In this document: piece by piece, positions 2,660 through 58,603 of the stretch
Position numbering within the stretch: the first letter of the stretch is position 1
Layout: each line of letters opens with the position of its first letter
Source: Candidatus Omnitrophota bacterium
GTDB lineage: Bacteria; Omnitrophota; Gorgyraeia; Gorgyraeales; Gorgyraeaceae
Assembly: GCA_043814965.1 (NCBI GenBank)
Contig: JBDRJN010000014.1
Coordinates: 3,084 to 67,083, forward strand
Direction: 5' to 3'
DNA: 64,000 nucleotides
Program-made: the position numbers and the translations under genes
Notes under the pieces: generated by a model
The model's input: only the letters and a program-made list of their open reading frames with translations
Database searches by the model: none
Told to the model about the DNA's origin: nothing

Positions 2660-4589
2660 GGCGATCGGGCTGCTGTTGTCCTTTTTGCCTTTAGGCCTTT
2701 CTCTCTTTATAGGGCGAAGGCTGGGGGATATGGCATATCTTGTAAATTCAAAAAGAAGGTCTATCGCATATGCCAATCTAAAGGCTAGCTTCCCTGACAA
2801 AAAAAGAAAAGAGCTTAAAGAGATAGCCAGGTCCCATTACAGAAATCTGGGGATGAATATCATAGAGCTTTTAAAGTTTCCGCAGATGAGCCCTTCTTAT
2901 CTAAAAAGACATATTGAGTTTAGGGGCACGGAAAATACCGAAAAAGCGATTTCACAAGAAAAAGGCGTAATATTATTGACAGCTCACTTTGGAAATTGGG
3001 AGATATCTTCTCTTGCTTCAAATAGTCTTGGATACAAGATGAGCGTTTTTGCAAGGGAACAAAAATATAAAAAACTAGATAACCTGCTTAATCGATATAG
3101 GCAATTAACAGGATGTAAGGTTGTAACAAAGGGTTTTTCTGTAAGAGATATTATAAAAACGCTTAAAGATAATGGCATTGTCGCGATGCTGGCTGATCAG
3201 GATGCAGGAGCTAATGGAGTATTTGTTGATTTTTTTGGAAGAAGGGCTTCCGCGGCTACAGGCCCTATAGTCTTTGGCCAGAAGACGGGAGCAGTGATAC
3301 TGCCTTCTTTCGCAAGAAGAAAGGATGATCTTGATCATTTTGTAGAGATCAATAGACCCTTTGAGCTTATAGATACAAAAGATAAAGAAAAAGATCTCAA
3401 GGCAAATTTAGAAAACCTGAATAAGATCCTGGAGGGGTATATAACAAGATTTCCTGACCAATGGCTTTGGTCTCACAAGAGATGGAAGAGTTCTCCTGAC
3501 AGGAAAGTGCTTTTATTGAGCGATGGAAAGGCAGGGCACCTTAACCAGTCTTTGTCAGCAGCTGACCTGGTAAAGGACGCATTGCGTAGAAGACTCGATA
3601 GGAAGGGCATAAAAGAAAATGAGATCGTAGATATAAAAATCTGTGAGATTGAGTTTAAAAATAGGTTTACCAGGATATTTTTGGATATTGCAAGCGTATT
3701 TTCCGGCAGGCGCTGCCAAGGCTGTATGAGGTGTTTAAAGTTTTCCCTTACAAAAGAATCTTTTAAACGTGTCGCGGCCCAATATGCCGATATTGTGGTC
3801 TCGTGCGGGTCATCCCTGGCATCTGTAAATATATTTTTGAAATACGAGAACAATGCTAAAAACTGTATAATCATGAAACCAGGTTTCTATAATCGCGGCA
3901 AATTTGATAGGGTTATGATCTCAAAACATGATATGCCTTTTAAAAAGAGCCCTAACTTAGTTATTACAGAACTTCCGCTGAACAATATTACAAATATAGA
4001 GATGGATAAGAAAACCTCTGATGTGTTTGGGGAAGATATCGCTAAAGGCGGGGTAGGATTATTGGTAGGAGGCGATGCAAAAGGTTTTAGCCTGGATAAA
4101 GAATATACTGAAAGGCTCTTGGAAGCAGCCTTAAGGATATGCAAAGATAGATCACTAGGCTTATTTGTAACTACTTCTAGAAGGACCCCAGTCGAAATAG
4201 AAATGTATCTTAAAGACAAGCTTAAGGATGATGTATTATGTAGATCTCTTGTAATAGCTAACAAAGGTAATGTACAGGGCATAGTACCTGCGATATTAGG
4301 GGTAAGCGATATTATTTTGACAACACCAGATTCAGTATCTATGATCTCAGAGGCTGTCTCTTCAGGGAAATATGTAGTGGTTATAAAAGAGCATAAAAGT
4401 AAAATTAGACAGGGGCATGAGAATAAGTACGATAGGATCATAGCTAACTTGGAAAGAGACGGATACATAGAGACAGCTTATCCTTCTGGTATTTACGACA
4501 AGATAGCATATCTTCTAAAAAATAGGCCCAAGATCAAGGTTTTAAAAGATAGGGACATAGTGAGAGATTCTTTGGAATCAATATTATGA
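2598..4589 (+). CDS. lipid A biosynthesis acyltransferase (LpxL/HtrB family) fused to a C-terminal ELM1/DUF1022-like domain
   Basis: The N-terminal approx 300 aa carry ILLTAHFGNWE and MLADQDAG, as in LpxL/LpxM. From about nt 3500 the segment KVLLLSDGKAGHLNQSL matches the DGKAGhxNQslG start of the PF06258 (ELM1/DUF1022) family. The start is uncertain; 2598 overlaps the end of lpxK, and 2619 is an alternative ATG. Confidence 0.7.
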   Translation: MRSLRIKMNSIIDFLLFIIVKAIGLLLSFLPLGLSLFIGRRLGDMAYLVNSKRRSIAYANLKASFPDKKRKELKEIARSHYRNLGMNIIELLKFPQMSPSYLKRHIEFRGTENTEKAISQEKGVILLTAHFGNWEISSLASNSLGYKMSVFAREQKYKKLDNLLNRYRQLTGCKVVTKGFSVRDIIKTLKDNGIVAMLADQDAGANGVFVDFFGRRASAATGPIVFGQKTGAVILPSFARRKDDLDHFVEINRPFELIDTKDKEKDLKANLENLNKILEGYITRFPDQWLWSHKRWKSSPDRKVLLLSDGKAGHLNQSLSAADLVKDALRRRLDRKGIKENEIVDIKICEIEFKNRFTRIFLDIASVFSGRRCQGCMRCLKFSLTKESFKRVAAQYADIVVSCGSSLASVNIFLKYENNAKNCIIMKPGFYNRGKFDRVMISKHDMPFKKSPNLVITELPLNNITNIEMDKKTSDVFGEDIAKGGVGLLVGGDAKGFSLDKEYTERLLEAALRICKDRSLGLFVTTSRRTPVEIEMYLKDKLKDDVLCRSLVIANKGNVQGIVPAILGVSDIILTTPDSVSMISEAVSSGKYVVVIKEHKSKIRQGHENKYDRIIANLERDGYIETAYPSGIYDKIAYLLKNRPKIKVLKDRDIVRDSLESIL

Positions 4590-6721
4590 ATATACTGCAG
4601 ATCCTTCCAGCGCTTGAAGTAGGCGGAGTTGAGACAGGGACCATCGATCTATCCCGTGAACTTATGAAACGGGGCCACAATGTCATCGTTGTCTCTAATG
4701 GCGGTAAGATGGTAAAGCATCTTGTAGACATGGAAGCCCGCCATATCAAGCTGCCTGTACACAAAAAGTCACTAGTGACTATTATAAAGATGATAAAGAG
4801 ATTAAGGTATATTATACAAGAAGAAAATGTAGATATTGTGCATGCAAGATCCAGGGTCCCTGCCATAATAGCTTTTTTTGCTGCACGTTCTACAAGAGCG
4901 AACTTTATAACAACAGCGCATGGTTATTATTCTACGCATCTATTGAGCAAGGTGATGGGATGGGGTAAATTTGTGATCGTCGCATCAACTATCATGGGAA
5001 GGCACATGATAGAGAATTTTAAAGTCCCTCATGAAAGGTTAAGGTTTATACCCAGGGGCGTTGACCTTGAAGGCTTTAATTTTAATCCACCGGATCAATC
5101 AGATGCAAAATCGGAATATAAGATAGGTATAGTAGGCAGGATCACTCCGATAAAAGGGCATAGTTTTTTCTTGCAGTCTATCGCAAGAGTAATAAGGATA
5201 TTTCCTAAAGTAAAGATCCTTATCGTAGGCGACGCGCCTAAGGAAAAGCCTGAATACAGGCGTAATCTGGAACTTCTTATAAAAAAACTTGATATAGAAA
5301 GATTTGTTGAGTTCCTGGGCTCCAGGGATGACATGCCTAAAATTATGTCTTCTCTTGATCTATTGGTCTCTTCTTCTGTGGGGCAGGAGGCATTTGGAAG
5401 AGTAATAATTGAAGCAGGCGCAAGCGGTGTGCCTGTTGTGAGTACGCGTATAGGAGGAGTTGTAGATATAATCGAGGATAACAAGACAGGCCTTTTAGTA
5501 AAACCTGGTGATATAAAAGAGATGGTGGATGCTATATTAAAAGTTTTAAAGGACAGGAATCTTGCCAGGAACCTTGCAATCGAAGCAAGAAAAAAGGTAG
5601 AAAAGGAATACAATCTTAATGCTATGGCAGAGCGTACTATCAAAGTCTATGAAGAAGCGATAGATAAGAAGCGGATATTGGTCATAAAACTTGGGGCAAT
5701 AGGGGATGTCATACTTTCCGTCCCGAGCCTAAAACTCTTAAGGAATAATTTTCCCAATGCCTTTATAAGCGTATTAGTGGGGAATGAGTCCAGGCATATA
5801 TTGAAAAAGTGTCCATACATAGACGATATAATACTATATGACAATAGATCCAGCAGCAACATAAGGTCTCTTGTAAAGATATCCAATACAATAAGATCCA
5901 AGGGGTTTGATATGTCCATAGACTTGCAGAATAATAAAATAAGTCATTTTATAGCCTGGTTCAGTTTTATACCTATGAGATCTGGTTATGATAATAAAAA
6001 ACTCGGGTTTTTGCTTAATAATGGTATCAAGTATTTAAATATCGCTTCCGGCCCCATAGAAGAACAATTCAGGATCCTCAAAAAAGCGGGGTGTGATACA
6101 TCATCAGCCTCGAGGAGATTGGAATTATGGCCTTCCAGGGAAGATTTTCTGTATGTGGACAATTTTTTAAAAAGTGAATGGATAGGTGAGGGCCAGGTAC
6201 TCATCGGGATAAATATAGGAGGAAGCTGGAAGACAAAAAGATGGCCTAAAAGAAATATCGCAAGGCTTATTGATATGTTTGCTTCAAAACATATAAGAGT
6301 TGTCATAACTGGCGCGGAGAATGAAAAGGCCTTGGCAGAAGAACTCAAGTGTATCACAAAATCAAAGATCATAGATGCGGTCTCAAAGATAGACATATTA
6401 CAGCTGGCTAGCCTTATAAAAAGGTGTAAAGTATATATTACCGGAGATAGCGCTCCTATGCATATAGCTTCGGCTATGGGAGTAGAGTTTATAGCACTGT
6501 TTGGGCCGACAGACCCCAGGAGGCATGTTGAGCCAACAGCTAAGGCGGCTGTTATAAAAAAAGACCTGGCCTGTGCACCTTGCTATAGGTCAAAGTGCAA
6601 GAATATCATCTGTATGGATAAGATCAGCGTAGATGAGATATATAGATTGGTGATGGAAAAAATAGGAGATAATAAATCCGAAATCCGAAATCAGAAATCC
6701 GAAACAGATCCAAGATCTTGA
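4586..6721 (+). CDS. bifunctional glycosyltransferase: N-terminal GT4 (GT-B) domain fused to a C-terminal GT9 heptosyltransferase domain
   Basis: The N-terminus has ILPALEVGGVETGTIDL and the EAFGRVIIEAGASGVPVV EX7E-like region (GT4). From about nt 5670 it has ILVIKLGAIGDVILSVP and GDSAPMHIASAMGVEFIALFGPTDP, as in WaaC/WaaF/RfaQ-type GT9. The last 15 codons overlap a heptamer repeat. Confidence 0.7.
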   Translation: MNILQILPALEVGGVETGTIDLSRELMKRGHNVIVVSNGGKMVKHLVDMEARHIKLPVHKKSLVTIIKMIKRLRYIIQEENVDIVHARSRVPAIIAFFAARSTRANFITTAHGYYSTHLLSKVMGWGKFVIVASTIMGRHMIENFKVPHERLRFIPRGVDLEGFNFNPPDQSDAKSEYKIGIVGRITPIKGHSFFLQSIARVIRIFPKVKILIVGDAPKEKPEYRRNLELLIKKLDIERFVEFLGSRDDMPKIMSSLDLLVSSSVGQEAFGRVIIEAGASGVPVVSTRIGGVVDIIEDNKTGLLVKPGDIKEMVDAILKVLKDRNLARNLAIEARKKVEKEYNLNAMAERTIKVYEEAIDKKRILVIKLGAIGDVILSVPSLKLLRNNFPNAFISVLVGNESRHILKKCPYIDDIILYDNRSSSNIRSLVKISNTIRSKGFDMSIDLQNNKISHFIAWFSFIPMRSGYDNKKLGFLLNNGIKYLNIASGPIEEQFRILKKAGCDTSSASRRLELWPSREDFLYVDNFLKSEWIGEGQVLIGINIGGSWKTKRWPKRNIARLIDMFASKHIRVVITGAENEKALAEELKCITKSKIIDAVSKIDILQLASLIKRCKVYITGDSAPMHIASAMGVEFIALFGPTDPRRHVEPTAKAAVIKKDLACAPCYRSKCKNIICMDKISVDEIYRLVMEKIGDNKSEIRNQKSETDPRS

Positions 6722-6786
6722 TCTGCAAATGACAAGGATATTATTATTTAAAATTTTCGGATTTTGATATTCGAGTTTCGAATTTT
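6674..6786. repeat. inverted arrays of tandem GAAATCC heptamers (hairpin-forming element) overlapping the 3' end of the GT4-GT9 gene
   Basis: The 5' arm (AAATCCG)x2 AAATCAG AAATCCG AAAC (6674-6705) lies inside the last 15 codons. The central palindrome AGATCCAAGATCTTGATCT is at 6706-24. The complementary 3' arm TTTTCGGATTTTGATATTCGAGTTTCGAATTTT is at 6754-86. Confidence 0.7.
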
Positions 6787-9669: not shown

Positions 9670-9741
9670 GCATGGCAGAGCTTAAGATCATGTCTGCCAG
9701 CCTTCGCGGGTAGATCAAGAAAGGTTTTTTACAGCTTATAT

Positions 9742-9906
9742 TGTTGTTAGCTGGCGAGGTTTGAAAAAAGCCTTTTTGTTTTGCGAAACAACTGATCATG
9801 CATTACTGTAGAGTTGGCCTGTCAAAACAAAACGGAGCGAAGCCCAACTTTACAAATCACTAATTTTGGCTGAGCGTCTTTTTGAAGACCTCGCCAGCTA
9901 ACAACA
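9742..9906. repeat. 165-bp element bounded by perfect 19-bp terminal inverted repeats (TGTTGTTAGCTGGCGAGGT / ACCTCGCCAGCTAACAACA)
   Basis: Direct reading shows an exact 19-bp IR. Pairing extends imperfectly to about 35 bp. The interior holds a small hairpin TTGTTTtgcgAAACAA. It is intergenic between two heptosyltransferase genes. Confidence 0.6.
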
Positions 9907-9988
9907 TGCCCGCTCGAAAGAAAAATGCCTCTCAAACAGCGCGCATAAGCAGGTAAAGCTGGTTTTAAAAAAGTCAGGTTGTTAATAT

Positions 9989-10975
9989 ATGAACGCTATG
10001 AAAATGGATAATATAAATAAGGTCCTATTTATCACGCTTAGCAATATCGGAGATGCGATACTGACATTGCCGGCATTGACATGCCTTAAGGATAATTTTA
10101 AGGATGCCAAAGTGGATGTAGTAGCAGGTCCAAGGTCAAAAGAGGTCTTCATAAAAGACCCCTCGATAAATAAAATATTTATATACGATAAACACGCTTC
10201 ATTAAAAGAAAAAATAGGTTTTGTAAAGAACCTGCGGAAGGAAAGATATGACCTAGCGGTGGATATGAAGACGAGCCTTATGCCGTTATTGGCGGGCGCT
10301 AGATATAGGAATAGTTTGATTAGCTTCAAACCCTCAGGCCTTAAACATAAAAGGCTTATTCATTTAAACAAGCTAAGGGGCCTTGGCCTGGCCTGTGGAA
10401 CCAGGAGGAATATTTATATAGATCAGGGCGATAGATCGAAGATAGATAACATACTTAAACAAAAAGGCGCCAAGGATACTGATACATTGATCGGTATCAG
10501 CCCAAGCTGTTTAAGCTTGACTAAAGAATGGAGAATGGATGGTTTTATAGAAGTAGTAAAAGGGCTGGTCAAAAAAGCCGATACCAGGATTATTTTAATA
10601 GGAGAAGAGACAAAAAAAGATGTATCAGGGCATATCTTAAAGAGTGTATCCAGCGCTAACATTATTGACTTAACAGGTAAAACCGATCTAGGCGAACTTT
10701 TTGCCGCTATAGAAAGGATGAAGATATTAGTTAGTTGTGACAGCGCATCTATGCATATAGCAAGTGATTTAGGGATCAGGGTAGTAAGCATCTTTGGCCC
10801 GACAGATCCTCTAGAATATGGGCCTGCTGGCAAATACAGTGTTGTGATACAGAAAAAACTTGACTGTGTTCCATGTAAAAGGCCTGCTTGCAGGTTCAAT
10901 AATGAATGTATGGATGAGATAAAGCCAGAAGAAGTGATCGAGGCGGTAAATAAATTACTTGAAAGCAATATGTAG
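9989..10975 (+). CDS. ADP-heptose:LPS heptosyltransferase (GT9)
   Basis: VLFITLSNIGDAILTLPAL and CDSASMHIASDLGIRVVSIFGPTDP match GT9. Confidence 0.75.
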   Translation: MNAMKMDNINKVLFITLSNIGDAILTLPALTCLKDNFKDAKVDVVAGPRSKEVFIKDPSINKIFIYDKHASLKEKIGFVKNLRKERYDLAVDMKTSLMPLLAGARYRNSLISFKPSGLKHKRLIHLNKLRGLGLACGTRRNIYIDQGDRSKIDNILKQKGAKDTDTLIGISPSCLSLTKEWRMDGFIEVVKGLVKKADTRIILIGEETKKDVSGHILKSVSSANIIDLTGKTDLGELFAAIERMKILVSCDSASMHIASDLGIRVVSIFGPTDPLEYGPAGKYSVVIQKKLDCVPCKRPACRFNNECMDEIKPEEVIEAVNKLLESNM

Positions 10976-11009
10976 TATTTAGTATATAGTATGTAGTTGG
11001 GAGAATTGC

Positions 11010-20949: not shown

Positions 20950-21195
20950 AAGGTGAAATTTTTCCCTCGCAACATAGTATCATAAGAGTGTTACTCGGGA
21001 TCGTCTTTTAAGGAAGTATTTTTATATAGGGCTAAAAAAACTCGTCCGTCAATATGTGTGGCGGACTCAAACAGTAGTAGGGGGGCCTTAAGGCTCCCCT
21101 ACCGTAGAAAAGGTTTAGGCGAGAGCGAAAAAGAAAATAGAGTAACCCTGCACCGTACTGGTGCAGGGCACGCTGGGAAAATTTTACGTCCTCGA
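20950..21195 (+). repeat. structured repeat element copy A (about 245 nt; conserved hairpin core AAAAACTCGTCCGTCAATATGTGTGGCGGACTC; two further perfect stem-loops)
   Basis: Shares a 40-nt near-identical core, a similar 5' segment (GAAANTTTTCCC..ATAGT) and similar core spacing with the element at 38010-38263. It contains hairpins at 21041-21068, 21076-21103 and 21150-21172 and is bounded by an imperfect IR (GAAATTTTTCCC / GGGAAAATTTT). The overlapping ORF 21032..21223 is judged spurious. Confidence 0.5.
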
Positions 21196-26600: not shown

Positions 26601-26606
26601 TAAAAA

Positions 26607-26707
26607 CTCGAAATACTAAATTCGAAATCCGAAACTCGAAACAATGTCTAAATTTAAATTCGAATTTATAATTTGTTTCGGATTTCGGGTTTCGTGCTTC
26701 GAATTTC
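26607..26707. repeat. inverted arrays of tandem CGAAAYC heptamers (hairpin-forming intergenic element)
   Basis: The 5' arm CTCGAAATACTAAATTCGAAATCCGAAACTCGAAACA (26607-26643) is complementary to the 3' arm TGTTTCGGATTTCGGGTTTCGTGCTTCGAATTTC (26674-26707). The arms flank a 30-nt AT-rich spacer. The element starts 7 nt after the aminotransferase stop codon. Confidence 0.7.
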
Positions 26708-34200: not shown

Positions 34201-34243
34201 ACGCGAATAGCGTTTTAAGAATGACGCGTTCGCGTTTTTTTAT
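34201..34243 (+). terminator. candidate intrinsic terminator
   Basis: GACGCGAAtagCG pairs with CGcgTTCGCGT in an imperfect stem, followed by TTTTTTT at 34236-42. Confidence 0.4.
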
Positions 34244-38009: not shown

Positions 38010-38263
38010 AAAGCTAAAAAGGAGCTTGTTCACTCATGAGAAAACTTTTCCCCTATAGTGCCAGTATATATTTTGACACTTGGGGCCGCCTTTTATTCTG
38101 TGTTTTGCCGGGACTCGAAAAACTCGTCCGCCAATATGTGTGGCGGACTTCAGACAGTTTCGAGTCTTTTAGCCTCATAAAATGTGACATAGAAACCGCC
38201 AAAACACTTCATAAAAGGCTAAATTTTCTAATTCGCGAACAATCATCCTTTTTAGCTTAAATA
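38010..38263 (+). repeat. structured repeat element copy B (about 254 nt; terminal 13-bp IR AAGCTAAAAAGGA / TCCTTTTTAGCTT; conserved hairpin core at 38113-38155)
   Basis: The core GAAAAACTCGTCCGCCAATATGTGTGGCGGACTTCAGACAG is near-identical to 21035-21075. It is nested in a second IR (GACTCGAAA..TTTCGAGTC). The overlapping ORF 38036..38260 is judged spurious. Confidence 0.5.
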
Positions 38264-38315: not shown

Positions 38316-39401
38316 ATGACACGACAGATAAAAGTTGGAAAAGTTAAGATCGGCGGCGGGGCTCCTGTGTCAGTGCAGTCTATGGTAAAGACTGAAACGA
38401 CTAAGGTCCAGTCAGTCATTAAAGAGATAAAGGCCTTGGAGGATGTTGGGTGTGAGATCGTAAGGCTTGCAGTAAAAGATAATAAAGGAGCTTCTTGTTT
38501 AAAAAAGATAAAGAGTTCTGTCAATATACCCATTGTAGCTGATATTCATTATGACTATAGGCTCGCGCTTTTAGCTATTGAAAACGGGGTGGATAAGATC
38601 AGATTGAACCCGGGCAATATCTATAAAAAAGAACATGTCTTTGAGGTCGCTAGGCATGCTAAAAAGAATAGGATCCCTATTAGAGTAGGGGTGAATTCCG
38701 GGTCATTAAAGACACAAGACACAAGACACAAGACACAAGACACAAGACACAAGTCACAAGACACAAGTCACAAGTCACAAGTTGATATTATGGTGAAGTC
38801 AGCGTTAGATTATATAAAGCTCTTGGAGAAGGCTGGATTTTACGATATAATAGTCTCATTAAAGGCATCGGATGTGCTTATGACAATAGATGCTTATAGA
38901 AAGTTTTCTAAGGCATCAGATTATCCTCTTCACCTTGGCGTAACTGCAGCAGGCCCTAAATCATCTGGCCTGGTCAAGTCTTCTATAGGCATAGGGGTGT
39001 TATTACTAGAAGGCATAGGGGATACGATCAGGGTATCCTTGACAGGGAATTCTTCCAGCGAAGTCATGGCTGCGCAGAATATTTTGCAGGCTATAAACTT
39101 AAGGAGATTTTATCCCGAGATCATCTCTTGCCCAACATGCGGGAGGTGCCAGGTAGATTTGAGCCAGATAGTGGCTAAAGTAGAGGAACGGATTACGGAT
39201 TACGGGTTACGGGTTACGGGTAAAAAAAATCCGAAGATCGCTATAATGGGCTGTGAAGTCAATGGCCCGGGTGAAGCAAAAGAAGCTGATTTCGGCATTG
39301 CATTTGGCAAAGGGGCCGGAGTATTGTTCAAAAAAGGTAAGATTATAAAGAGAATCGAAGAAAAAGACACTATCAAGACACTCTTACGCTATTTAGGGTA
39401 A
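38316..39401 (+). CDS. ispG: 4-hydroxy-3-methylbut-2-en-1-yl diphosphate synthase (GcpE), carrying in-frame heptamer-repeat insertions
   Basis: KVGKVKIGGGAPVSVQSM and the C-terminal 4Fe-4S cysteines (CPTCGRC..GCEVNGPGE) match IspG. The 9 x ACACAAG tandem at 38711-38773 encodes TQDTRHK-type repeats in a surface linker. Confidence 0.9.
   Translation: MTRQIKVGKVKIGGGAPVSVQSMVKTETTKVQSVIKEIKALEDVGCEIVRLAVKDNKGASCLKKIKSSVNIPIVADIHYDYRLALLAIENGVDKIRLNPGNIYKKEHVFEVARHAKKNRIPIRVGVNSGSLKTQDTRHKTQDTRHKSQDTSHKSQVDIMVKSALDYIKLLEKAGFYDIIVSLKASDVLMTIDAYRKFSKASDYPLHLGVTAAGPKSSGLVKSSIGIGVLLLEGIGDTIRVSLTGNSSSEVMAAQNILQAINLRRFYPEIISCPTCGRCQVDLSQIVAKVEERITDYGLRVTGKKNPKIAIMGCEVNGPGEAKEADFGIAFGKGAGVLFKKGKIIKRIEEKDTIKTLLRYLG
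38711..38773 (+). repeat. 9 tandem heptamers (ACACAAG / TCACAAG) inside ispG, in frame (63 nt)
   Basis: Direct reading: (ACACAAG)x5, TCACAAG, ACACAAG, (TCACAAG)x2. A second array at 39186-39222 is (CGGATTA)x2(CGGGTTA)x2. Confidence 0.9.
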
Positions 39402-39426: not shown

Positions 39427-41157
39427 ATGCGTTGGTCAAAATATTTTATACCTACATTAAAAGAGATCCCTGCTGAAGCAGAGGCAGTAAGCCACAAGCT
39501 CATGATAAGAGCAGGCCTTATAAGAAAACTTGCTTCAGGAGCTTATACTTATTTACCGCTTGGCCTAAAGGTCTTAAAAAAAGTAGAGAATATTATACGG
39601 GAAGAGATGGATAAAAAAGGCGCGATAGAGCTTTTTTTGCCTTCCCTCCAGCCAGTTGAGTTATGGCATGAATCAGGTAGGTATAAGGCCTTGGGAGAGG
39701 ATCTTATAAAGTTTAAGGATAGACATGATCGCGTTATGGTATTCGGGCCTACACATGAAGAAGTTATAACTGACCTAGTCAGAAATCATATAAAAAGCTA
39801 TAGACAACTGCCCATAACATTGTATCAGATACAGACAAAATTTAGAGATGAGGTGCGCCCTAGATTTGGCGTGATGAGAAGCAGGGAATTCATAATGAAG
39901 GATGCGTATAGCTTTGATAGGGACACGCAAGGCCTTGATAAGAGCTATAAGTCAATGTATGAGGCATATGAGGCTATTTTTAAAAGGTGCGGCCTCGAGG
40001 TAATAGCAGTAGAAGCTGATTCAGGGGTCATGGGTGGAGATGTCTCTCATGAATTTATGATGTTAGCTGAAAGCGGTGAAGATAAATTAGCGCATTGCGT
40101 GTCTTGCGGTTATGCTGCAAGTTTAGATGTTGCAAGTTGCAAGACACCTGCCTGCCGGCAGGCAGGGCAAGACACAAATTGCAAGATGCAGGCGATGAAA
40201 GAAGTAGACACTCCAGGGGTGAGCACTATTGAGAAGGTCTCAGAACTCTTAAAGACAAAGCCAGATAAAATGGTAAAAACGCTTATATATATATCGGATG
40301 AGAAACCAGTCGCAGTGCTCATAAGGGGTGACCAAGAAGCAAATGAAGCAAAGATAAAAAAATATCTTAATACTACTTCATTAGAGATGGCAGGCGAGGA
40401 CACTATTAAAAAGGCAACAGGAGGTCCTCTTGGTTTTTCAGGGCCAGTAGGCCTCAAAGATATCAGGATAATAGCTGATAATTCCATAAAGGCCATGTCA
40501 AATTTTATAACAGGAGCCAATAAAAATGACAAGCATCTTTTGAATGTCAATCTGGAAAGAGACCTTAAGGTCAAAGAATATGGGGACCTCAGGATGGCTG
40601 GAGAAGGCGATATATGTCCTAAGTGTTCGAAAGCAATAAAGATAGAAAATGCTATTGAAATGGGGCATGTATTTAAATTGGGCTTAAAGTATTCAAAGGC
40701 AATGTCAGCTGAATTCCTGGATGAGGACAGTACGCTTAAGCCAATGGTAATGGGATGTTATGGCATAGGGGTCAATAGGATCATAGCAGCTTCTATAGAG
40801 CTGCATAATGATAGATCAGGCATAATATGGCCTAGGTCTATTGCGCCATTTGATGTAGTTATAGTTCCTATAAATTATGAAAAAGAGGCTGTTAAAACAT
40901 GCGCTGACAAAGTATATAACTTATTGAAAGAAAATAAGTTAGATGTATTGATAGATGATAGGGACCTGAGCGCTGGAGTAAAATTCAATGATACTGAACT
41001 TATAGGAATACCTCTTCAGGTAGTTATAGGCGAAAGAGGCCTTAAAAATAATACAGTTGAGATCAAGGAAAGACAGCAAGGCCAAGCAAAGCAAGTCAAA
41101 AACCAAGCCAAAGATATTCTAGCAGCAATCCTTAATCTATCGGATAAAGATCAGTAA
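39427..41157 (+). CDS. proS: prolyl-tRNA synthetase (bacterial type with INS editing domain)
   Basis: Class II aaRS motifs and the ProRS-specific anticodon-binding C-terminus are present. Length is 576 aa. It contains a palindromic repeat insertion at 40124-40192. Confidence 0.9.
   Translation: MRWSKYFIPTLKEIPAEAEAVSHKLMIRAGLIRKLASGAYTYLPLGLKVLKKVENIIREEMDKKGAIELFLPSLQPVELWHESGRYKALGEDLIKFKDRHDRVMVFGPTHEEVITDLVRNHIKSYRQLPITLYQIQTKFRDEVRPRFGVMRSREFIMKDAYSFDRDTQGLDKSYKSMYEAYEAIFKRCGLEVIAVEADSGVMGGDVSHEFMMLAESGEDKLAHCVSCGYAASLDVASCKTPACRQAGQDTNCKMQAMKEVDTPGVSTIEKVSELLKTKPDKMVKTLIYISDEKPVAVLIRGDQEANEAKIKKYLNTTSLEMAGEDTIKKATGGPLGFSGPVGLKDIRIIADNSIKAMSNFITGANKNDKHLLNVNLERDLKVKEYGDLRMAGEGDICPKCSKAIKIENAIEMGHVFKLGLKYSKAMSAEFLDEDSTLKPMVMGCYGIGVNRIIAASIELHNDRSGIIWPRSIAPFDVVIVPINYEKEAVKTCADKVYNLLKENKLDVLIDDRDLSAGVKFNDTELIGIPLQVVIGERGLKNNTVEIKERQQGQAKQVKNQAKDILAAILNLSDKDQ
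40124..40192 (+). repeat. heptamer/palindrome element inside proS coding sequence
   Basis: GTTGCAAGTTGCAAGACAC, then the CCTGCCTGCCGGCAGGCAGG palindrome at 40147-66, then GCAAGACACAAATTGCAAG. The same palindrome (1 mismatch) recurs at 49555-49574. Confidence 0.7.
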
Positions 41158-41286: not shown

Positions 41287-44200
41287 ATGACAGTATGTTC
41301 TTTAAGGAAAACGTGTTCTGTCTTTTTAATAGTGATCTTTACTATTACTAATATTGCCTATGGAGCTCCCAGCGAAAGGTCCTTTTTTAAGAATAAAAAA
41401 GTAGATTATAAGAAATTAAGCACCCAAAGCCAAGAACAGCTCGAGAAGAAAAAGGCTGTTTTAAGCGGTGAAGATGTAAAAAAGACAAGTAAAAAACCTT
41501 CCAAGGCCAAGCAAATAGATTTTAGCGCCCATCTAAGCGATATATCAGAGATAAATATCCCCGGCGAATTAGGAAGAGTCGTTGAGGTATATAAAGCCCC
41601 TGATTCTGAAAAAGACAAGAACAGGCTTGTAGTACATATCCAGGACCTCCATGCCAATCCTGAGGCTACACTTAACCTGGCAAGTATATTGGAGATATTG
41701 GTAAAAGATTATAACCTGGATCTAATATGTTCTGAAGGCGCGGAAGGAGAGGTTGATACATCAAGCGTTTCCAGTTTTCCTGACGCTGAGATCAGGAAAA
41801 AGACAGCAAAGCTATTTGTAAATTCAGGAGAACTTACAGGAGAAGAATACCTTTCTATTACCAAATACCCGGATCTTCCTATATGGGGAATAGAAGATAA
41901 GGATATATATTTCAATAATATAGTCCAGTTCAATAAGATAATGCAGTTTTCCAACTCCAGTTATGTCTTTATCTCGCAGTGCACAAATGCGCTGGATGCG
42001 TTGAAGCCTTACATATACTCAAAAGAGATCCTGGAATTGGACCAGAAAGAATCCGAATACGATAATGGTAATCTGGAGACATCTTTGTACCTGGATTATG
42101 TCTTGCCTTATGTGGAGCAGTTCAATATATCGAAAGACAAATATAAAAATATCTCTCTTTTAACAGAGACGATGGCTAAAGAAAAGACTATTGACCAGCA
42201 AAAGGTGATGAAAGAATCGCAAGACCTTTTAATGGACCTTCAGAATATGCTTTCAAGAAAAGGCGGAGAATCTGACCTGGAAGCCCTGATAGCCAAGGCA
42301 GAGCTTTTTAAGAATAAGAAAATATCGCCATTCTCTTTCTATAATTACCTGAAGGGCCTGGCTCAGAAGCACCTGAAGGAGAAATCAGAGAGCTATACGT
42401 ATCTAAATGAATTTATAGATTATCTTACCAAGGTAAACGATCTTGATGCTTCAAAGCTTTTTACTGAGATCGGGGAATTAAGTTATGAGATAAAAGATAA
42501 TCTTGCCAAAAAAGACGAAGAAAAGCTTCTTACAAAGGTTATACGTAATGCAAAGTTCTTGACAGGGTTTTTTAGCCTCAAGATATCCAATGAAGAGCTT
42601 GACTACTACCTGGAAGACAAACCTTCTTTTGAAGTATCATTCTTTAAGGAATTCCTAGAGCCCAACCTTAAAAAATATAATATTACGAGTTACGTGGATT
42701 ATAACCCTGAATTTATAGACAATAAGTTCAGCGAAATAGAGGAGTTTTACGGTACTGTAAAATCGCGAGATTTTTCCATGTTCAATAATTCCATGTCTCA
42801 GATCGAAAGTAGAAGAGCAAAAGTCGCAGCCCTTATATCAGGAGGTTTTCATACCAGGGGCATAACAAAACTATTAAGAGAAAAAGGTTATTCTTATGTA
42901 GTTATATCCCCTTACTCTTCGCAGGAGACAGATGAAGAGAACTACCACTTCCTTCTCTCAGGACAGCGTAAACCAATAGAAGAGCTTATAAGGCAGCTAG
43001 ACGTAGAAGAGACAGTCGATAGATTATCTTCCAATGATAATCTGCGCAGTTTAATGCGTTTCGGGAATAATACAGTAGAGGCCTGGAATAATTCTGTAGT
43101 ACCTCAAAAGATAGCTGAGATATTGGGATTAAAAGTAGAAGACGTACAATTAGAGCCTTTATTGAATGATGCTGCAATTGTGCTGGGATTAAGCAGCGGC
43201 GCAGAAGCATGGCATAGTTCTCCGGTAGGTATGGAAGTAAGGTCTCCAAGAAAAGGAGAGATAATATTAAAGTTCGATGATAATAGTTATGTAAAGATGA
43301 CGAGCCTTGGAGAGGTAAAACGTGTAGATAAAAAAGAATTCAGAGGAAAGACCACTCTTAGCATAACTCCTAATGTAGACGGAACTATAAATGTAGCTGA
43401 AACTGATAGAGGCAAAGGTTCGCCCCTGGAGTTGTTAAAATTCATGGTGGATGGGACATATTACGAAGGGGAGTCCATATCTAAAGCAGATTTAGTAGCT
43501 GGAAGGTCTTTTTCTGTATCTACTATAGACCTAGAGATAAAAAGCCTTACAGAACTCGGACTATTAAAAAAGAATAGTGATGGGACATATGAACTTACGA
43601 GCTATATAGGCCTAGAGCAATATAATAATATTAAAGCAGTTACAGGTCCTATAGTACAAGTTAATGGTAAAAACGAGGGATTAAATCGTTATAGGATAGA
43701 CGACCTGTCAGAAGATAAAAAGAATGAATTTAAAAATGCCATAGACTTTGCTGTAACTTACCAAAAGACCCCATCAAACTTTCTAAAAAAATTAATCCTT
43801 GCAGGAGGCAAGCTTGATATCAAAGGTACCGGTGAATCTGGCGAGGCCCTTGCGCTTTATTATGCGGATCTAGCTGAGACTTTTGCAGGACCTACTGGAA
43901 TAGAATCTGTGGCATTGAGTAAAAATATTACATTTGCTGAGGCAGGGCTTATAGCAGATATTGTAGATCATGCCAGCGCGCTTAATATTACAGGAACCAG
44001 AAACAGCATAAGTCAAGCTTTTGAAACAGCAAAAAATCTTTCTGTATCACGAGAGGAGCCTAGATACAGTATAAAAGAGACGTCACTAAGTTCAGATTTT
44101 GAAATAGCAAGAAATCTTCCTGATATGTATAGAGATCTTTCCCCGGAAAAGATCAAAGACAAGATCATAATAGTACGAGGCAATTTAAACGCGCCTTTGG

Positions 44201-47200
44201 ATAAATCTGGAGAAGTAAGTGATCCTACCAGGCCGGATAATATTGATAAGGCTGTTACTTATATAATTGAAAATGGAGGTACACCTGTTGTCTATGGCCA
44301 TCTCATGAGGCGTGAAAATAATATATCTATGGAGCCAGTAGCTAGTTATTTATCAGATAAATACGGACAAGATGATGTAGTTTTTCATAAGGGTAGCATC
44401 ACTAAAGACGGATTAACGATCAGTCGAAATAATATTATAAGGGGTAAGATCAATATCCTTGAAAATATAAGGCTCGTAGACAAAGAAAATGAAGCAAAGC
44501 TTGGCAGGCAGATCGCATCTCTTTCTGAAGACAAGATATTAGTAGCTGACGCGCTTGGGGATGAAGGATCAAGCGATGTCGTACATGTCTATAATGCCGC
44601 TAGCGAGGTATATCAGGGGCCGGAAGAAAGAAGAGAATTTTCTGAATTGGAAGATACACTGAAAAATGGCGTTGATGTAGTATTGTTCGGTGGATTTAAA
44701 ATAGAAAAACTGGATCTTTTATTAAGGCTGGTCGATGCCCTGAGAGATGGCGGTGTTGTCTTATTGGGGTCAGGACCTTCAGACCACATCAGGAACGATC
44801 CTGAAATAAAAGAGCAATTAAAAGGCCTTATTGATGCAGGAAAGATCATCTTAGCTGAAGGGGATAAGTATTATTTTAATAAAGTAATGGGAAGGGACAT
44901 GCCAGGAGATATCTCTTCTCAGGATCTAGAGAGATACTCCAATATCCTTGATAACCTTAAACCAGGCCAGAGGGTCTTATTTAATGGGACAATGGGTTTT
45001 ATGGAGAAAAAGGATAGTAATGAAAATATAGAAATATCCTATAGAGAAGGTACTAAAAAGATACTCGAGAAAGTATCTGAGATCAGTGAAAAAGGCGTAA
45101 AAGGCCTTGGAGTCGGAGGAGATGGTACAAAATGGGCCAGGCATTATAGATTGAATAAGAAGGAAAATATAATGCTGTCTACAGGAGGTGGAGTTTCCCT
45201 AAGCCTTATTACGCATGAACCTTTAAAAGGTACTAAAGCGCTTTCCAATAGAGCGCAAACTCAGAAAATTGCAAAGCGAGATTTTTCATCTGAGTATGGC
45301 TATGTAGCTGAGGATTTAGTCGGTCCGCTAGCTAGCATGGCAAAAACTACCAGCCAGGATAATACACCTTACGCAAAATACGCATCAGATAGAGATAATG
45401 TAAGCCCCTCTACCATAAAGACACAACCTGCTATTGGCCGTCCGGAAGCGGTAGCGTATGAGGCAGATTCTCCTTATAATATAATAACGCAGTTACAAGA
45501 AGCTAAAAAAACTGACTATGCCCGAAACTTACAGGATGTAATGAGTGTCGCATTAAGGGATTATCCGGAATTGAGAGATATTTCTTTTAAGATAAAAATA
45601 ATCAGCAACAGCCAGGAAAACCTTGCTGAATATATGCCAGGCCAGGAAATGATAACAATAGATGAGTCTATACTCGCTAATTTTGAACTTATGCGCCAGG
45701 AGCTTATCTCGGAAGAATTCCGCCATATGCTATATAATAATCTTGTACGGTCAGTAAGAAATAAAGATGTAACGCCTAGGCAGAGACTTGTAGAAGAGGC
45801 TGCCACAGATATGCAGAAATTTAGGGACCTTCTTAGGATACAGACAGCCGAGGGAAGAGCTGCTCTTATCGGGCCTTTGATCTATTCTACTGATAAATTC
45901 AATTTCTACAGGCTGCTTTTGAGAACTATACCGCAGGGAAAAGAAAGGAACGATGTCCTGGATATTCTTCTTCGAGACCATTTTATATCAGAAGATTTTA
46001 GAAATAATTATAGTGAGCGTAAAGGGATAAGCGGAGATGAGGAAAGGCAGGTAGAGGCCTTAAATACTCATTATAAAAACAATTCTGTATTTTCTCCGGA
46101 ATTACAGCGCTTGATGATTAAACCTATAACGCTTGAAGAAGTGAAAGCTTATGAAACCGATTTCAATAATATCAGGCTAGAGTATAGAGCGCAGAAGATG
46201 GCTGAAAAGCCGGCATCAGCTGAAGATACATGGACAGAGGTTACTAAGAAGTTTACAGATAAGGCAGAACAATATGAACGTGCAATGATACTTACTGAGT
46301 TAGATAAGATCGCTAGCGGCGACTATGTGGCTGAGGATCTAATCGGTCCGCTAGCTATTAACCAGCTTCCTATAGATGTAAGTGATGATAGAGATACTGT
46401 AGGAATTCTTTTGTCAGCAGAAGGGTTACTTGGAAAAGGTTTTATTAGCGAGAGAAGAATAGATAATAACAATGATCTCGACAGGACCAATCCTTCTAAG
46501 CCAGCTTACTATATTGACCGCATGGAGAATGCATTAGAAGAGCACAGTACATATGATGAGATAATACTCGCAGTTATAGATGACAGGATGAAAACACAGG
46601 TCTGGAAAGAGATTAAAACTGCATTCCAGGGTACTGAATACGAGTTTCTTTTACGTAAGATTAGAGTAGTAAGCAAGATCAAACCTGATACAGGCAATCA
46701 TGATGCAGTAATTGAACTGCTTGATTCAGCTGTAGGTGTAGGAAAAAAGGAAGATAATGATAAAGGTCGTTTCCTTATTATACAGACTGCCGGAAGCGGA
46801 TCTAGGAACTATCCTTTAACAGCAACTGCTAAAGGCAATAAGGGCCTAGTACAGGTACCGGGAGATATTGATGGTAAGGCAGTGTTCAATAATATTATTC
46901 AGACTATCTGCCAATCACATCAGCTCCTTGATGATACCCCATCTGGGACAGTTACTGTGCTGGGATGTGACCAGCTTTGGGCTGTAGCTAATTCAGTAAA
47001 AGGTAGTGGTGCAGGCTTAGATATTCTTGGCAATAGTGTTAGCATGGATAATGTTATTAAAGAACTCGTAGATCTAGGGATTATAAATGGAGTAGAAAAC
47101 AGCAAAATTATTTCTGATCTAACTGAAGAAGAGATTGCTTTAAGAATAGACTATCTTTTTGACCCTAAGATCAGAACTGAAGAAGTAGGTCTAAAATGGA

Positions 47201-49554: not shown

Positions 49555-49574
49555 CCTGCCTGCCGGTAGGCAGG
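49555..49574. repeat. 20-bp palindrome CCTGCCTGCCGGTAGGCAGG (copy of the proS-internal palindrome)
   Basis: Identical to 40147-40166 except for the central C/T. It lies 46 nt after the giant gene's stop codon. Confidence 0.8.
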
Positions 49575-49588
49575 GAAAGTGTACCCTA

Positions 49589-49631
49589 TAGGCCTTTTGT
49601 GTACTAAACCTACACAAAAGGCCTATTTTTT
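49589..49631 (+). terminator. Rho-independent terminator of the giant gene
   Basis: Perfect 15-bp stem TAGGCCTTTTGTGTA / TACACAAAAGGCCTA with a 7-nt loop and a T6 tract at 49626-31. Confidence 0.75.
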
Positions 49632-50358: not shown

Positions 50359-50399
50359 GGCACAATGTAGGTGGTCCTTAGGGGCCGCCTACATTGTGC
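50359..50399 (+). other. GC-rich stem-loop (12-15 bp stem) between rimP and nusA
   Basis: GCACAATGTAGGTGG, a loop, then GCCTACATTGTGC. No T-tract follows. It immediately precedes the conserved leader motif. Confidence 0.6.
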
Positions 50400-50437
50400 T
50401 GCGACAATACTGTAAGGCACACTTCAGTGCGCCAAAG
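50398..50437 (+). promoter_or_regulatory. conserved 40-nt leader motif copy 1 (upstream of nusA): CTGCGACAATACTGTAAGGCACACTTCAGTGCGCCAAAG
   Basis: 36/40 identical to 53768-53807 upstream of trpS. It contains the hairpin GGCACACT..AGTGYGCC. It ends 23 nt before the nusA ATG. Confidence 0.55.
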
Positions 50438-50459
50438 ACATTAAGATTAGGAGCTAGAC

Positions 50460-53719: not shown

Positions 53720-53767
53720 GCAAAGGCTGGAATTGGCGCATTTTAATGTGCCTGTTTATGGAAGCCT

Positions 53768-53807
53768 TTGCGACAACACTGTAAGGCACACTTTAGTGTG
53801 CCAAAAG
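53768..53807 (+). promoter_or_regulatory. conserved 40-nt leader motif copy 2 (upstream of trpS): TTGCGACAACACTGTAAGGCACACTTTAGTGTGCCAAAAG
   Basis: See copy 1. It is preceded by the nested hairpins GCAAAGGC..GCCTTTGC and GGCGCAT..ATGTGCC. It ends 11 nt before the trpS ATG. Confidence 0.55.
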
Positions 53808-53817
53808 TCAATATCAT

Positions 53818-54798
53818 ATGAAAAAACGTATCTTAAGCGGCATGAGGCCTACAGGGCCACTTCATCTGGGACATCTATTTGGAGCGCTTTCGAATTGGGT
53901 AAAGCTCCAGGATGATTATGATTGCTTTTTTATGGTTGCGGACTGGCATGCGCTTATGAGTGAATATGAAGGCCCAAAGGACATGCCTCGATATACATTA
54001 GAATGTGTTGCTGATTGGATAGCATCTGGAATAGATCCTGAAAAAAGTGCTATATTTGTGCAATCTCATATAAAAGAGCACCTGGATCTATTTATGATAT
54101 TTTCAACATTTGTGCCGCTTGGGTGGCTTGAGAGGTGTCCTACGTATAAGGAGCAGCTTAGGGAGGTCACTACTAGGGAGCTTCATACCTATGGGTTTTT
54201 AGGATATCCTGTTCTCCAGGCTTCTGATATATTGCTGTATCATGCAGATATTGTCCCTGTAGGAAGAGACCAACTCCCGCACCTGGAACTTACTAATGAT
54301 ATAGGGGCAAAGTTCAACAATCTATACGGGAATACATTTAATGAGATAAAGCCGCTTCTTACTAATACTCCAAAACTATTAGGTACAGATGGACGGAAGA
54401 TGAGCAAATCCTATAGCAATTTTATTGCGCTCGGTGATACTGAAATAGATATTAAGAAAAAATGCTCCTCTATGTTTACAGACCCCAAGAGGATAAAGCT
54501 GACAGACAAAGGCCATCCGGATGAATGTAATCTTTATTCATATTTTGAGCTTTTTAAAAAAGATCGTTTAGAGGATGTATATGAATATTGCATAAATGCA
54601 AAAAAAGGCTGTACAGAGTGTAAAAGCGGACTAGCAAAGGTTATCTCGGATTACCTGTCTGATATAAGAAACAAGAGAGAAAAGCTCCTGAAAGATAAAG
54701 ATACGCTGATAGATATATTGAGAGAAGGAACCAAGAAGGCAAGTAAGGTAGCATCAGAGACGATAAAAGAAGTTAAGCAGAAAGTCGGTTTAACTTAG
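53818..54798 (+). CDS. trpS: tryptophanyl-tRNA synthetase
   Basis: The HIGH-type motif (PTGPLHLGHLFG) and the KMSKS motif match class I TrpRS. Confidence 0.9.
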   Translation: MKKRILSGMRPTGPLHLGHLFGALSNWVKLQDDYDCFFMVADWHALMSEYEGPKDMPRYTLECVADWIASGIDPEKSAIFVQSHIKEHLDLFMIFSTFVPLGWLERCPTYKEQLREVTTRELHTYGFLGYPVLQASDILLYHADIVPVGRDQLPHLELTNDIGAKFNNLYGNTFNEIKPLLTNTPKLLGTDGRKMSKSYSNFIALGDTEIDIKKKCSSMFTDPKRIKLTDKGHPDECNLYSYFELFKKDRLEDVYEYCINAKKGCTECKSGLAKVISDYLSDIRNKREKLLKDKDTLIDILREGTKKASKVASETIKEVKQKVGLT

Positions 54799-54900
54799 TT
54801 TATAGTTTATGGTTTATTGTTTATGGAAATAGATTTTGATCCTAAAACTCTAAACCCTTAATACGATCTATAAACTATATACTATCAACCATAAACTAAA
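54796..54900. repeat. inverted arrays of tandem GTTTATR heptamers (hairpin-forming intergenic element)
   Basis: The 5' arm TAGTTTATAGTTTATGGTTTATTGTTTATGG overlaps the trpS stop codon. The 3' arm CTATAAACTATATACTATCAACCATAAACTAAA is complementary. The spacer is 41 nt. Confidence 0.7.
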
Positions 54901-54903
54901 AAA

Positions 54904-57385: not shown

Positions 57386-58462
57386 ATGGTACCACGTAAA
57401 GCGATAGTAGATATAAAACCCTATCAACCAGGAAAACCTATAGAAGAGGTAAAGAGGGAACTAGGTTTGAGGGACGTCATAAAGATGGCTTCGAATGAAA
57501 ATCCTTTCGGGCCTTCCCCCAAGGCTGTTTCTTCTATCAAAAGACACCTCAACACCATAAACAGGTACCCAGAAGGAAGCTGTTTTTACCTCAGACAAGC
57601 TGTTTCTAAAAGGTTAAAGATAAAACAGGAACAGCTTATTTTTGGTAATGGTTCGGATGAGCTTATAGTCTTGGCTTGCCGGGCTTTTTTAAATGAAGGT
57701 GATGAAGTAATAGTAACAAGCCCTAGTTTTTTGATATACGAGATAGCCTCTTTGGCGCAAGGGGCAAAGGTCAAAAAGATACCAACAAGGTATTTTAAAT
57801 ACGACCTTCCAGCCATGAAAAAGGCTATATCAAAGAATACCAAGATCTGCTTTATTGCAAATCCGGATAATCCCAACGGTACTTATGTCTCGAAGATAGA
57901 GCTAGAGATCTTCTTAAAGGACTTACCGGAAGGAGTCCTTGTTTTTATAGATGAGGCGTATTCTGATTTTGTTGAAGAAAAAGACTATCCAAATGGCCTG
58001 GATTATATATCGAGGGGAAATGTGGTTGTAACGAGAAGTTTTTCAAAGTCATACGGGCTTGCAGGCTTAAGAATAGGCTATGGAGTATCAAGCCCTGAGA
58101 TCATTAAATACATGGAAGCTGTAAAAGAGCCGTTTAATATTAATTCCATTGCTCAGGCAGCAGCGCTTGGGGCATTGAAAGATAAAGAGTTCCTCTCTAA
58201 GGTAAAGAGGCTTACAAGGATAGGCCGGAAGTTTTTATATGAAGAGATAAAGAAAATGGGTTTGAGATATATCCCCAGCGTTACCAACTTTGTATTGGTC
58301 GAGATAGGCCAAGATAGCGATCTAGTCTGCAAGAAGCTTTTAAAAAAAGGCATTATTATAAGGGATATGAATGCCTGGAACATGAATGGCTTTATAAGGG
58401 TCACTGTTGGTACTGATAAGGAAAACAAGAGATTTATTAAAGAGCTAAAAAAGATAGTATAA
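57386..58462 (+). CDS. hisC: histidinol-phosphate / aromatic aminotransferase (class II)
   Basis: KMASNENPFGPSP and the PLP-Lys context SFSKSYGLAGLRIGY match HisC-type aminotransferases. It sits in an aromatic amino acid gene cluster. Confidence 0.8.
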   Translation: MVPRKAIVDIKPYQPGKPIEEVKRELGLRDVIKMASNENPFGPSPKAVSSIKRHLNTINRYPEGSCFYLRQAVSKRLKIKQEQLIFGNGSDELIVLACRAFLNEGDEVIVTSPSFLIYEIASLAQGAKVKKIPTRYFKYDLPAMKKAISKNTKICFIANPDNPNGTYVSKIELEIFLKDLPEGVLVFIDEAYSDFVEEKDYPNGLDYISRGNVVVTRSFSKSYGLAGLRIGYGVSSPEIIKYMEAVKEPFNINSIAQAAALGALKDKEFLSKVKRLTRIGRKFLYEEIKKMGLRYIPSVTNFVLVEIGQDSDLVCKKLLKKGIIIRDMNAWNMNGFIRVTVGTDKENKRFIKELKKIV

Positions 58463-58603
58463 AAAATCAAAAATAAAAATGCAAAATGACAAATTAAAGT
58501 TAAAAAATAAATAGCCCAACATATAGACAAGCTATAATTTTATATTTTGATTTGTAATTTTGATATTTAATCTTTAATTTTTAATTAAAAAAGAGGTGTT
58601 TAT

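Follow-up and report, generated by a model that had tools for sequence, protein, structure and literature searches.

The 64,000-nt stretch of a Candidatus Omnitrophota contig analyzed here (the window) contains short hairpin elements between its genes, in which a tandem array of 7-nt units is followed by an array of the reverse-complement units. These elements are a real, non-random and lineage-wide feature, and they represent a known kind of bacterial repeat in a host lineage that is new for it. With a probability of about 0.55 we regard them as palindromic heptanucleotide simple-sequence repeats (SSRs) that disperse like repetitive extragenic palindromic (REP) sequences or transposable elements of the miniature inverted-repeat type (MITEs) and form a class common across Candidatus Omnitrophota. 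The window was compared with 80 Omnitrophota loci from 80 genomes (1.17 Mb together with the window). Its trpS product, for which no identical protein record was found, is 82% identical to that of the nearest relative, and metagenome-assembled genomes (MAGs) of Candidatus Omnitrophota make up all of its close relatives. The ispG and aminotransferase products have identical counterparts on a contig of an Omnitrophota MAG. The closest relative used for comparing junctions is a single MAG represented by two loci (L001 and L094).

Architecture and period of the elements

Three hairpins of this kind had been proposed from the letters of the DNA without any database search, and all three were found where they had been placed (elements 1-3, Table 1). 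Their number had been underestimated, since the window contains eight intergenic heptamer elements, seven of them hairpins, and among its 26 gaps between genes that measure 25 nt or more, 8 are made up of such elements. Elements 1-3 rank at the top of all inverted repeats in these 64 kb, each in several pairing registers, as expected for arms that are both tandem repeats. Their predicted RNA folds reach -28.8, -32.8 and -25.7 kcal/mol for elements 1, 2 and 3, with z-scores of -2.6, -5.3 and -4.3, respectively (calculated against dinucleotide shuffles). The GAAATCC core CGAAATCCGAAAC is matched eight times in the window with up to two mismatches, always within elements 1 and 2, where 0.9 matches are expected.

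The proposed location of the 5' arms at or near the stop codons of the upstream genes also proved correct: in element 1 the arm is translated through, in element 2 it begins 4 nt past the TGA, and in element 3 the first unit contains the TAG of trpS. The open reading frame (ORF) 4586-6721 indeed continues through the first arm and ends with ...NKSEIRNQKSETDPRS before the TGA in the spacer, its tail being about 14 amino acids longer than that of the GT9 paralogue at 9989-10975. Pfam supports the suggested identity of the upstream genes as a GT4+GT9 fusion, a class-V aminotransferase and a tryptophanyl-tRNA synthetase (TrpRS). The hairpins of the CACAAG family at 59637, 61960 and 63622 have a common 3' motif CTTGAAACTTRTGAC and an identical GAAAC bulge. 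Within the window there are three CACAAG hairpins and two GAAATCC elements.

Table 1. Positions of heptamer elements and arrays in the window, with the state of the same junction in the closest relative (L001 and L094), and of the dispersed palindrome in locus L002
Feature	Positions	Strand	Description	Same junction in closest relative
Element 1	6674-6785	+	AAATCCG x4.4 at 6674-6704; arms 31 nt, 74% complementary, 50 nt apart	
Element 1, 5' arm	6674-6704	+	GAAATCC-type heptamers x4.4 inside ORF 4586-6721, translated SEIRNQKSE	
Element 1, spacer	6705-6754	+	small palindrome CAGATCCAAGATCTTGATCTG; TGA stop of ORF 4586-6721 (6719-6721)	
Element 1, 3' arm	6755-6785	+	degenerate TTTCGGA-type heptamers; end 7 nt short of next ATG (6793)	
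Direct-only array	10969-10997	+	TATRTAG x4.1; overlaps stop of ORF 9989-10975; no inverted partner	
Element 2	26604-26707	+	aminotransferase-serA; heptamers x5.4 at 26604-26641, TTTCGGA x2.7 at 26676-26694; arms 45 nt, 76% complementary, 8 nt apart, or in another register 32 nt, 81%, 39 nt	empty, TAA then GGAG
Element 2, 5' arm	26604-26654	+	AAAYTCG/AAATCCG heptamers after class-V aminotransferase gene	
Element 2, 3' arm	26663-26707	+	TTTCGGR heptamers; end 33 nt ahead of serA-like start (26740)	
ispG array 1	38709-38781	+	AAGACAC x10.4, in frame, peptide KTQDTRHKTQDTRHKSQDTSHKSQ; 11-aa insertion relative to Aquifex IspG (PDB 3NOY)	
ispG array 2	39188-39221	+	ACGGRTT x4.9, in frame, peptide ITDYGLRVTG; 7-aa insertion relative to Aquifex IspG (PDB 3NOY)	
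proS array	40129-40185	+	GTTGCAA x2 and G+C-rich palindrome CCTGCCTGCCGGCAGGCAGG (40147-40166), with GCAAGACAC on both flanks	
Element 3	54795-54902	+	trpS-scpA, full inverted element; TAGTTTA x4.1 and CTATAAA x5.0; arms 33 nt, 82% complementary, 39 nt apart	direct CTAAMAA array only, corresponding to 3' arm of the window
Element 3, 5' arm	54795-54827	+	GTTTATR heptamers; trpS stop at 54796-54798	
Element 3, 3' arm	54867-54902	+	CTATAAA-type heptamers; end 2 nt before scpA ATG	homologous direct CTAAMAA array
Element 4	58459-58587	+	A-rich/T-rich heptamer palindrome between hisC-like and DAHP synthase (aroF) genes; about 130 nt in a gap of 141 nt	empty, TAA then GGAG
Element 5	59637-59680	+	aroF-tyrA; short CACAAG-family hairpin, 3' motif CTTGAAACTTATGAC	hairpin of another unit family (GGATTAC/GCATCAC)
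Element 6	61960-62001	+	CACAAG-family hairpin between lytB and rpsA; 5' arm of 2 units	same family, 5' arm of 4 units
Element 7	63622-63675	+	CACAAG-family hairpin 3' of rpsA	orthologue 81% identical
TAACTTTACACTTTAACGTTGTTGAAATGTAAAGTTAG palindrome in L002	285, 1454, 4191, 6355, 7705, 9951, 10980, 11756, 13470, 13508, 14630, 15691, 16598, 17272, 19754		15 copies on CAYPYS010000007.1	

Arrays in the window were located with Tandem Repeats Finder and with our own periodicity scan, which accepted at least 3 units with up to 2 mismatches and was compared with dinucleotide shuffles. It returned eight arrays of period 7 against 0.45 in the shuffles and none of periods 8-13, and 100 kb of Escherichia coli K-12 contained no array of period 7. 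When only arrays with 4 or more copies are counted over the whole 1.17 Mb, period 7 leads with 42, followed by period 6 with 14, period 8 with 5 and period 5 with 3; periods 9-12 and shuffled sequences yielded none. Crude ORF calls put about 90% of this DNA into coding sequence, yet they place 50 of 94 arrays outside genes. An inverted partner was scored where the reverse complement matched in at least 12 of 14 bases at a distance of no more than 160 nt. By this measure 37 of 61 intergenic arrays (61%) are paired, compared with 4 of 61 (7%) for composition-matched control probes that were only complemented or only reversed, and just 5 of the 33 arrays within coding sequences have such a partner. 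Elements lying between two called genes are flanked by co-directional genes in 46 of 47 cases and take up practically the whole gap; as a rule they begin no more than some 15 nt from the stop codon and reach to about 20 nt or less from the next start, near the ribosome-binding site (RBS).

Unit sequences are diverse across the lineage, yet each genome re-uses a few families. A common generating process behind the shared architecture, as had been suggested for the first three elements, is supported by a phenomenon that is lineage-wide, specific for period 7 and built from diverse units, and by the frequency of inverted pairing. The absence of further copies, which would have spoken against that suggestion, is contradicted by additional examples, both in these 64 kb and among the 80 loci compared.

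Turnover at orthologous junctions and dispersal of unit families

Synteny 3' of trpS is conserved and allows the same junctions to be compared across genomes. The gap between trpS and scpA does not exceed 15 nt in 52 of 73 genomes, frequently as an overlapping TAATG, and abutting genes therefore represent the ancestral state. In 11 syntenic junctions there are 125 intercistronic gaps of 40-200 nt, of which 86 reach a fold z-score below -2 (median -3.0). Heptamers form a clear run in 24 gaps, as compared with a single run of period 6 and two of period 8. Where a spacer is present at a syntenic junction it is almost always a hairpin.

Filled, empty and altered versions of the same site are found between the window and its closest relative (Table 1). 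Presence, unit number and even unit family therefore turn over fast between orthologous sites, which is a process at the DNA level. Three pairs of filled and empty sites show TA or TAA at both ends of the insertion, but in an A+T-rich stop-codon context, so this is not significant. The hairpin 3' of rpsA behaves differently from neutral sequence, being 81% identical over 69 nt between the window and the closest relative versus 40% at the fourfold-degenerate sites of rpsA, with predicted pairing registers one unit apart. It does not drift neutrally, and either purifying selection or homogenisation toward the family consensus is responsible.

Dispersal is most evident in one relative (L002), where a 37-nt palindrome TAACTTTACACTTTAACGTTGTTGAAATGTAAAGTTAG occurs 15 times in 21 kb, at almost every gene junction. 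Ten copies have one orientation and five the other, and once they form an inverted tandem pair. The 5' TAA of the palindrome provides the stop of the gene before it, while the 3' end merges with the Shine-Dalgarno sequence. As a REP- or MITE-like element it is of extreme density. The same palindrome is located between the aminotransferase gene and serA in two other genomes (L095 at 2330, L097 at 2375). A metagenome scan with the 3' motif of the CACAAG hairpins gave only 8 matches, some probably due to chance, and detected the CACAAG unit family also on another heptamer-rich contig. Outside this lineage, the scan found a Burkholderiales-like contig with 63% G+C (Ga0184628_10014806, positions 3330-3460 of locus L087) that has a hairpin of the same unit family, NNNCAAG (units GTTACAA, GTTGCAA, GTCGCAA and GTTACAA ... 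CTTGTGTCTTGAAACTTGTGACTTGTAAC) 3' of a GGDEF/EAL gene whose nearest named homologues come from Burkholderiales and Betaproteobacteria. Unit families that are common to several junctions of one genome and to different genomes show REP- or MITE-like dispersal. At the trpS-scpA junction of three relatives (L010, L035 and L049) another hairpin family is found, GTCATTGCGAG...CTCGCAATGAC with GCGAAGC-type loops, which shows that several unrelated palindromic families compete for sites of this type.

Heptamer arrays are also present inside genes. The two in ispG are direct and not inverted, and in an alignment of 22 Omnitrophota IspG sequences they match the only two loops that are hypervariable and variable in length. 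In the one distant ispG homologue whose DNA was inspected (positions 727-1881 of locus L081) the first loop is encoded by about 15 units of CCAGYAT and the second by four of GCATCAC, and units of GTCGTTA extend across the stop codon, so that even the C-terminus is heptamer-coded. The units of the second loop are alike in the window (GGATTAC) and in this homologue (GCATCAC/GCATTAC) at 62% protein identity. Such cases show heptamer arrays to be tolerated in frame at protein surface loops and C-termini. Directly downstream of that heptamer-rich ispG lies a gene (1898-2329) with Pfam matches to 23S_rRNA_IVP and bAvd, the latter being an accessory protein of diversity-generating retroelements. The G+C-rich palindrome within the proS array, CCTGCCTGCCGG(C/T)AGGCAGG, is read there as ...KTPACRQAGQD... 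and is found a second time in an intergenic position at 49555-49575, and peptides resembling its product (RRGTGQAG, LRSGQA) are seen in loops and tails of IspG homologues.

Possible origin and role

Each element represents a tandem 7-nt array joined to its reverse-complement array, and such arrays arise and turn over exactly between the stop codon and the next RBS, in strings of co-directional genes with abutting or overlapping ends elsewhere. In compact operons they would build up where they are least harmful, namely at stop-codon/RBS junctions, in protein loops and at C-termini. Replication slippage in steps of 7 nt, with loops too long for MutS, may let the arms grow and shrink, a strand-switch event or a palindromic insertion could produce the inverted copy, and some copy mechanism would spread the families.

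Several observations weigh against this interpretation. Complementarity of the arms is no more than 74-85%, and unit by unit they do not mirror each other. Slippage and strand switching are deduced from patterns, target-site duplications are only suggestive given TA/TAA flanks in an A+T-rich context, and the 81% conservation of the hairpin downstream of rpsA could mean a real host function, to which this interpretation gives second place. A Pfam scan that covered 10 of about 52 window proteins and included no search for REP-associated tyrosine transposases (RAYTs) revealed neither a transposase nor a RAYT nor any other gene for mobilisation. The ORF calls in relatives are crude.

As to a possible effect on RNA, transcription of the elements is probable, given their location in strings of co-directional genes or apparent operons that show no promoter or terminator signals. 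Transcribed elements would fold as imperfect hairpins of 20-45 bp, with repeated arms that can pair in several registers. A REP-like effect, either as barrier to 3'-to-5' decay or as processing point between cistrons, would be the most plausible one, and factor-independent termination appears less likely. The idea that the hairpins are terminators was not borne out: none combines a G+C-rich stem with a T-run behind it, and none was listed by a terminator scan that did find canonical sites with both features at 49588-49626 (after an ORF of 2740 amino acids) and 34223-34236, so the intrinsic-terminator reading was rejected. Folds of the plus and the minus strand are equally stable with similar G-U counts, and among relatives 11 elements begin with the A-rich arm and another 11 with the T-rich arm. 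With neither strand nor orientation bias and no T-run, there is therefore no sequence sign of selection on sense-strand RNA and no terminator signature. A hairpin function that is independent of sequence is possible. Scans of the whole window gave no Rfam match at gathering thresholds and no tRNA or tmRNA, by which a known RNA family was ruled out, and a CRISPR array was dismissed since unique spacers of constant length are lacking.

Other explanations have to be weighed against palindromic SSRs with dispersal. It is conceivable, though rather doubtful, that function came first and the hairpins were selected as intercistronic 3' stabilisers, processing sites or non-canonical terminators, heptamers being an easy means of building stems. 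This would agree with structured spacers as the rule (86 of 125 gaps with z < -2, median -3.0), with the conservation downstream of rpsA (81% against 40% at neutral sites), with elements that span from stop codon to RBS, and with pairing in several registers that keeps stems robust to unit insertions and deletions. It is at odds with the lack of a T-run or G+C-rich stem in a window that has canonical terminators elsewhere, with the missing G-U strand asymmetry and the 11:11 orientation, with the many relatives that have no spacer at all at the same junction, and with the same arrays in coding loops, where a hairpin partner exists in only 5 of 33 cases. Pure microsatellites, each array being made in place by slippage and inverted by local template switching, with neither dispersal nor function, seem unlikely. 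The first GTTTATR units do resemble a conserved GGTTTA at the end of trpS, direct-only arrays occur (at 10969 and at trpS-scpA of the closest relative), orthologues differ in unit number, and the heptamer excess of many bacteria has been ascribed to slippage (PMC4679880, PMC4692102). However, paralogous copies have asymmetric features outside the units in common, such as the GAAAC bulge of all CACAAG hairpins, 15 near-identical copies in both orientations populate L002, the same families appear at different junctions in different genomes, and conservation exceeds the neutral level.

A speculative and quite improbable extension would be a dedicated system, with a hairpin-targeting transposase or a template-repeating polymerase as candidates, by which Omnitrophota, and perhaps other heptamer-rich lineages such as some Burkholderiales, would write or spread heptamer arrays both between stop codon and RBS and within protein loops; the hairpins with their flexible registers might then be a general intercistronic punctuation that sets the relative expression of cistrons, and in-frame arrays of essential enzymes like IspG might be frameshift-prone contingency loci. 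We think it very improbable that the arrays are binding sites of a repeat-recognising RNA- or single-stranded DNA-binding protein (e.g., of the S1, Csp or CsrA type, which has been proposed in the case of TAACTGA repeats) with the heptamers of each genome matching its protein. Genome-specific families do recur (ACGCTAT x6, AACTAGT x4, CACAAG at 4-5 loci), the second ispG loop has kept similar units in the window and its distant homologue at 62% protein identity, and there is a precedent (PMC4679880), but several unrelated unit families occur together in one 64-kb window, both orientations are equally frequent, the units are degenerate and a candidate protein was not found. An origin by chance, from low-complexity sequence or through an artefact of assembly is effectively refuted by the controls: the regions are A+T-rich and element 4 comes near to low complexity, whereas shuffling and period specificity, as well as the recurrence of the architecture in dozens of independent assemblies from different projects, contradict such an origin.

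Relation to known repeats and further observations

Short tandemly repeated repetitive (STRR) sequences of heterocystous cyanobacteria comprise several heptamer families per genome, which are dispersed and largely intergenic. The sequence-only reading had called them the closest analogue; they are a fair structural one, but the inverted GGGAATC pairs of Xanthomonas come closer (PMC4692102). STRR proper differ from the elements described here, whose host is an omnitrophotal bacterium and whose units are GAAATCC, GTTTATR, CACAAGN and others. For Nostoc only few inverted heptamer pairs are reported, and Calothrix provides a further STRR example (PMC4692102). Xanthomonas campestris and X. axonopodis possess 70-75 inverted GGGAATC pairs per genome, which are transcribed (Rehm et al. 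2015, PMC4692102); the length of these arrays varies between related genomes and their single or paired type is kept (PMC4692102). As in Omnitrophota, these are close convergent heptamer arrays that can form stem-loops (PMC4692102). Each Xanthomonas genome, however, has one G-rich unit forming G-quadruplexes, whereas here several A+T-rich families per genome coexist and in-frame arrays reside in conserved enzymes; the units of elements 1-3 have no GGG runs.

Heptamers are the most abundant long SSRs in many prokaryotes, which has been explained by slippage of the polymerase (Mrazek 2007, summarised in PMC4679880 and PMC4692102). The elements described here resemble those repeats in that 7 nt is the dominant long period, the location is mostly intergenic and the distribution among genomes is patchy; at least three head-to-tail 7-nt copies are found at 6674, 26604, 54796 and eight more sites. 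In these summaries the survey of Mrazek covers neither Omnitrophota nor a palindromic arrangement nor a placement between stop codon and RBS. TAACTGA repeats of marine Beggiatoaceae, cyanobacteria and Bacteroidetes, for which a post-transcriptional role was suggested (MacGregor 2015, PMC4679880), are likewise short intergenic heptamer arrays near coding boundaries with a unit that recurs in distant lineages. Unlike the present elements they consist of a single unit, are nearly always direct (with one inverted case) and lie just upstream of start codons (PMC4679880).

REP sequences, bacterial interspersed mosaic elements (BIMEs) and REP doublets forming hairpins (REPINs) are, like the elements of the window, small imperfect extragenic palindromes that are often found just past stop codons in operons. 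They are multicopy, occur in both orientations and sometimes as inverted tandem pairs, their families are conserved across strains, and their effects include mRNA stabilisation (PMC3116915, PMC2817692, PMC3733652). Elements 1-3 and their counterparts share the form of short imperfect extragenic palindromes near gene 3' ends, but REPs have a GTAG or CGTC tag at one end (PMC3733652), are G+C-rich and linked to RAYTs, whereas here the elements are untagged and their arms heptamer-periodic. Neither GTAG/CTAC nor CGTC/GACG is present at the ends of elements 1-3. Tiny repeats tolerated in frame within conserved protein genes are also known as Rickettsia palindromic elements and as small dispersed repeats of Nostoc (SDR, cited in PMC3116915); these are palindromes of fixed sequence, in contrast with the direct tandem heptamers of ispG.

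A literature search found no paper on heptamer-repeat elements of this kind in Omnitrophota. With them an uncultivated phylum joins the heptamer-rich lineages; palindromic heptamer arrays are a sizeable part of the DNA between its cistrons, with 8 of 26 gaps of the window and about one fifth of the long gaps at syntenic junctions. For the annotation of MAGs it matters that the arrays lengthen ORFs, give conserved enzymes hypervariable loops and may cause assemblies to break. Since related genomes differ in unit number at orthologous sites, the arrays might serve as strain markers, and structured spacers between most cistrons of these genomes concern operon expression. Pairs of filled and empty orthologous sites are a natural data set on the favoured 7-nt period of SSRs and on the origin of inverted arrays.

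Further features were noticed in the window, in which GC skew is positive from 1 to 64000 (0.15-0.24) and all long ORFs lie on the plus strand. The ORF of 2740 amino acids extends from 41287 to 49509, and of all canonical terminators in the window the one after it is the clearest. Another hairpin repeat, ACTGTAAGGCACACTTYAGTGYGCCAAA, is present in two copies in consecutive intercistronic gaps (50409-50445 and 53778-53812), each preceded by a different and longer hairpin (50360-50399 and about 53720-53770). Two copies of AACTCGTCCGYCAATATGTGTGGCGGACT (21039-21067 and 38121-38149) are located in the two intergenic regions of more than 300 nt; on the minus strand they resemble a terminator hairpin with T-run and could mark unannotated minus-strand RNAs. 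Finally, the 319-nt intergenic region 9670-9988 contains a long-range inverted repeat at 9740-9920, TGTTGTTAGCTGGCGAGGT ... ACCTCGCCAGCTAACAACA, with about 140 nt between its halves, which has no match in Rfam and could represent either a MITE or some structured RNA.

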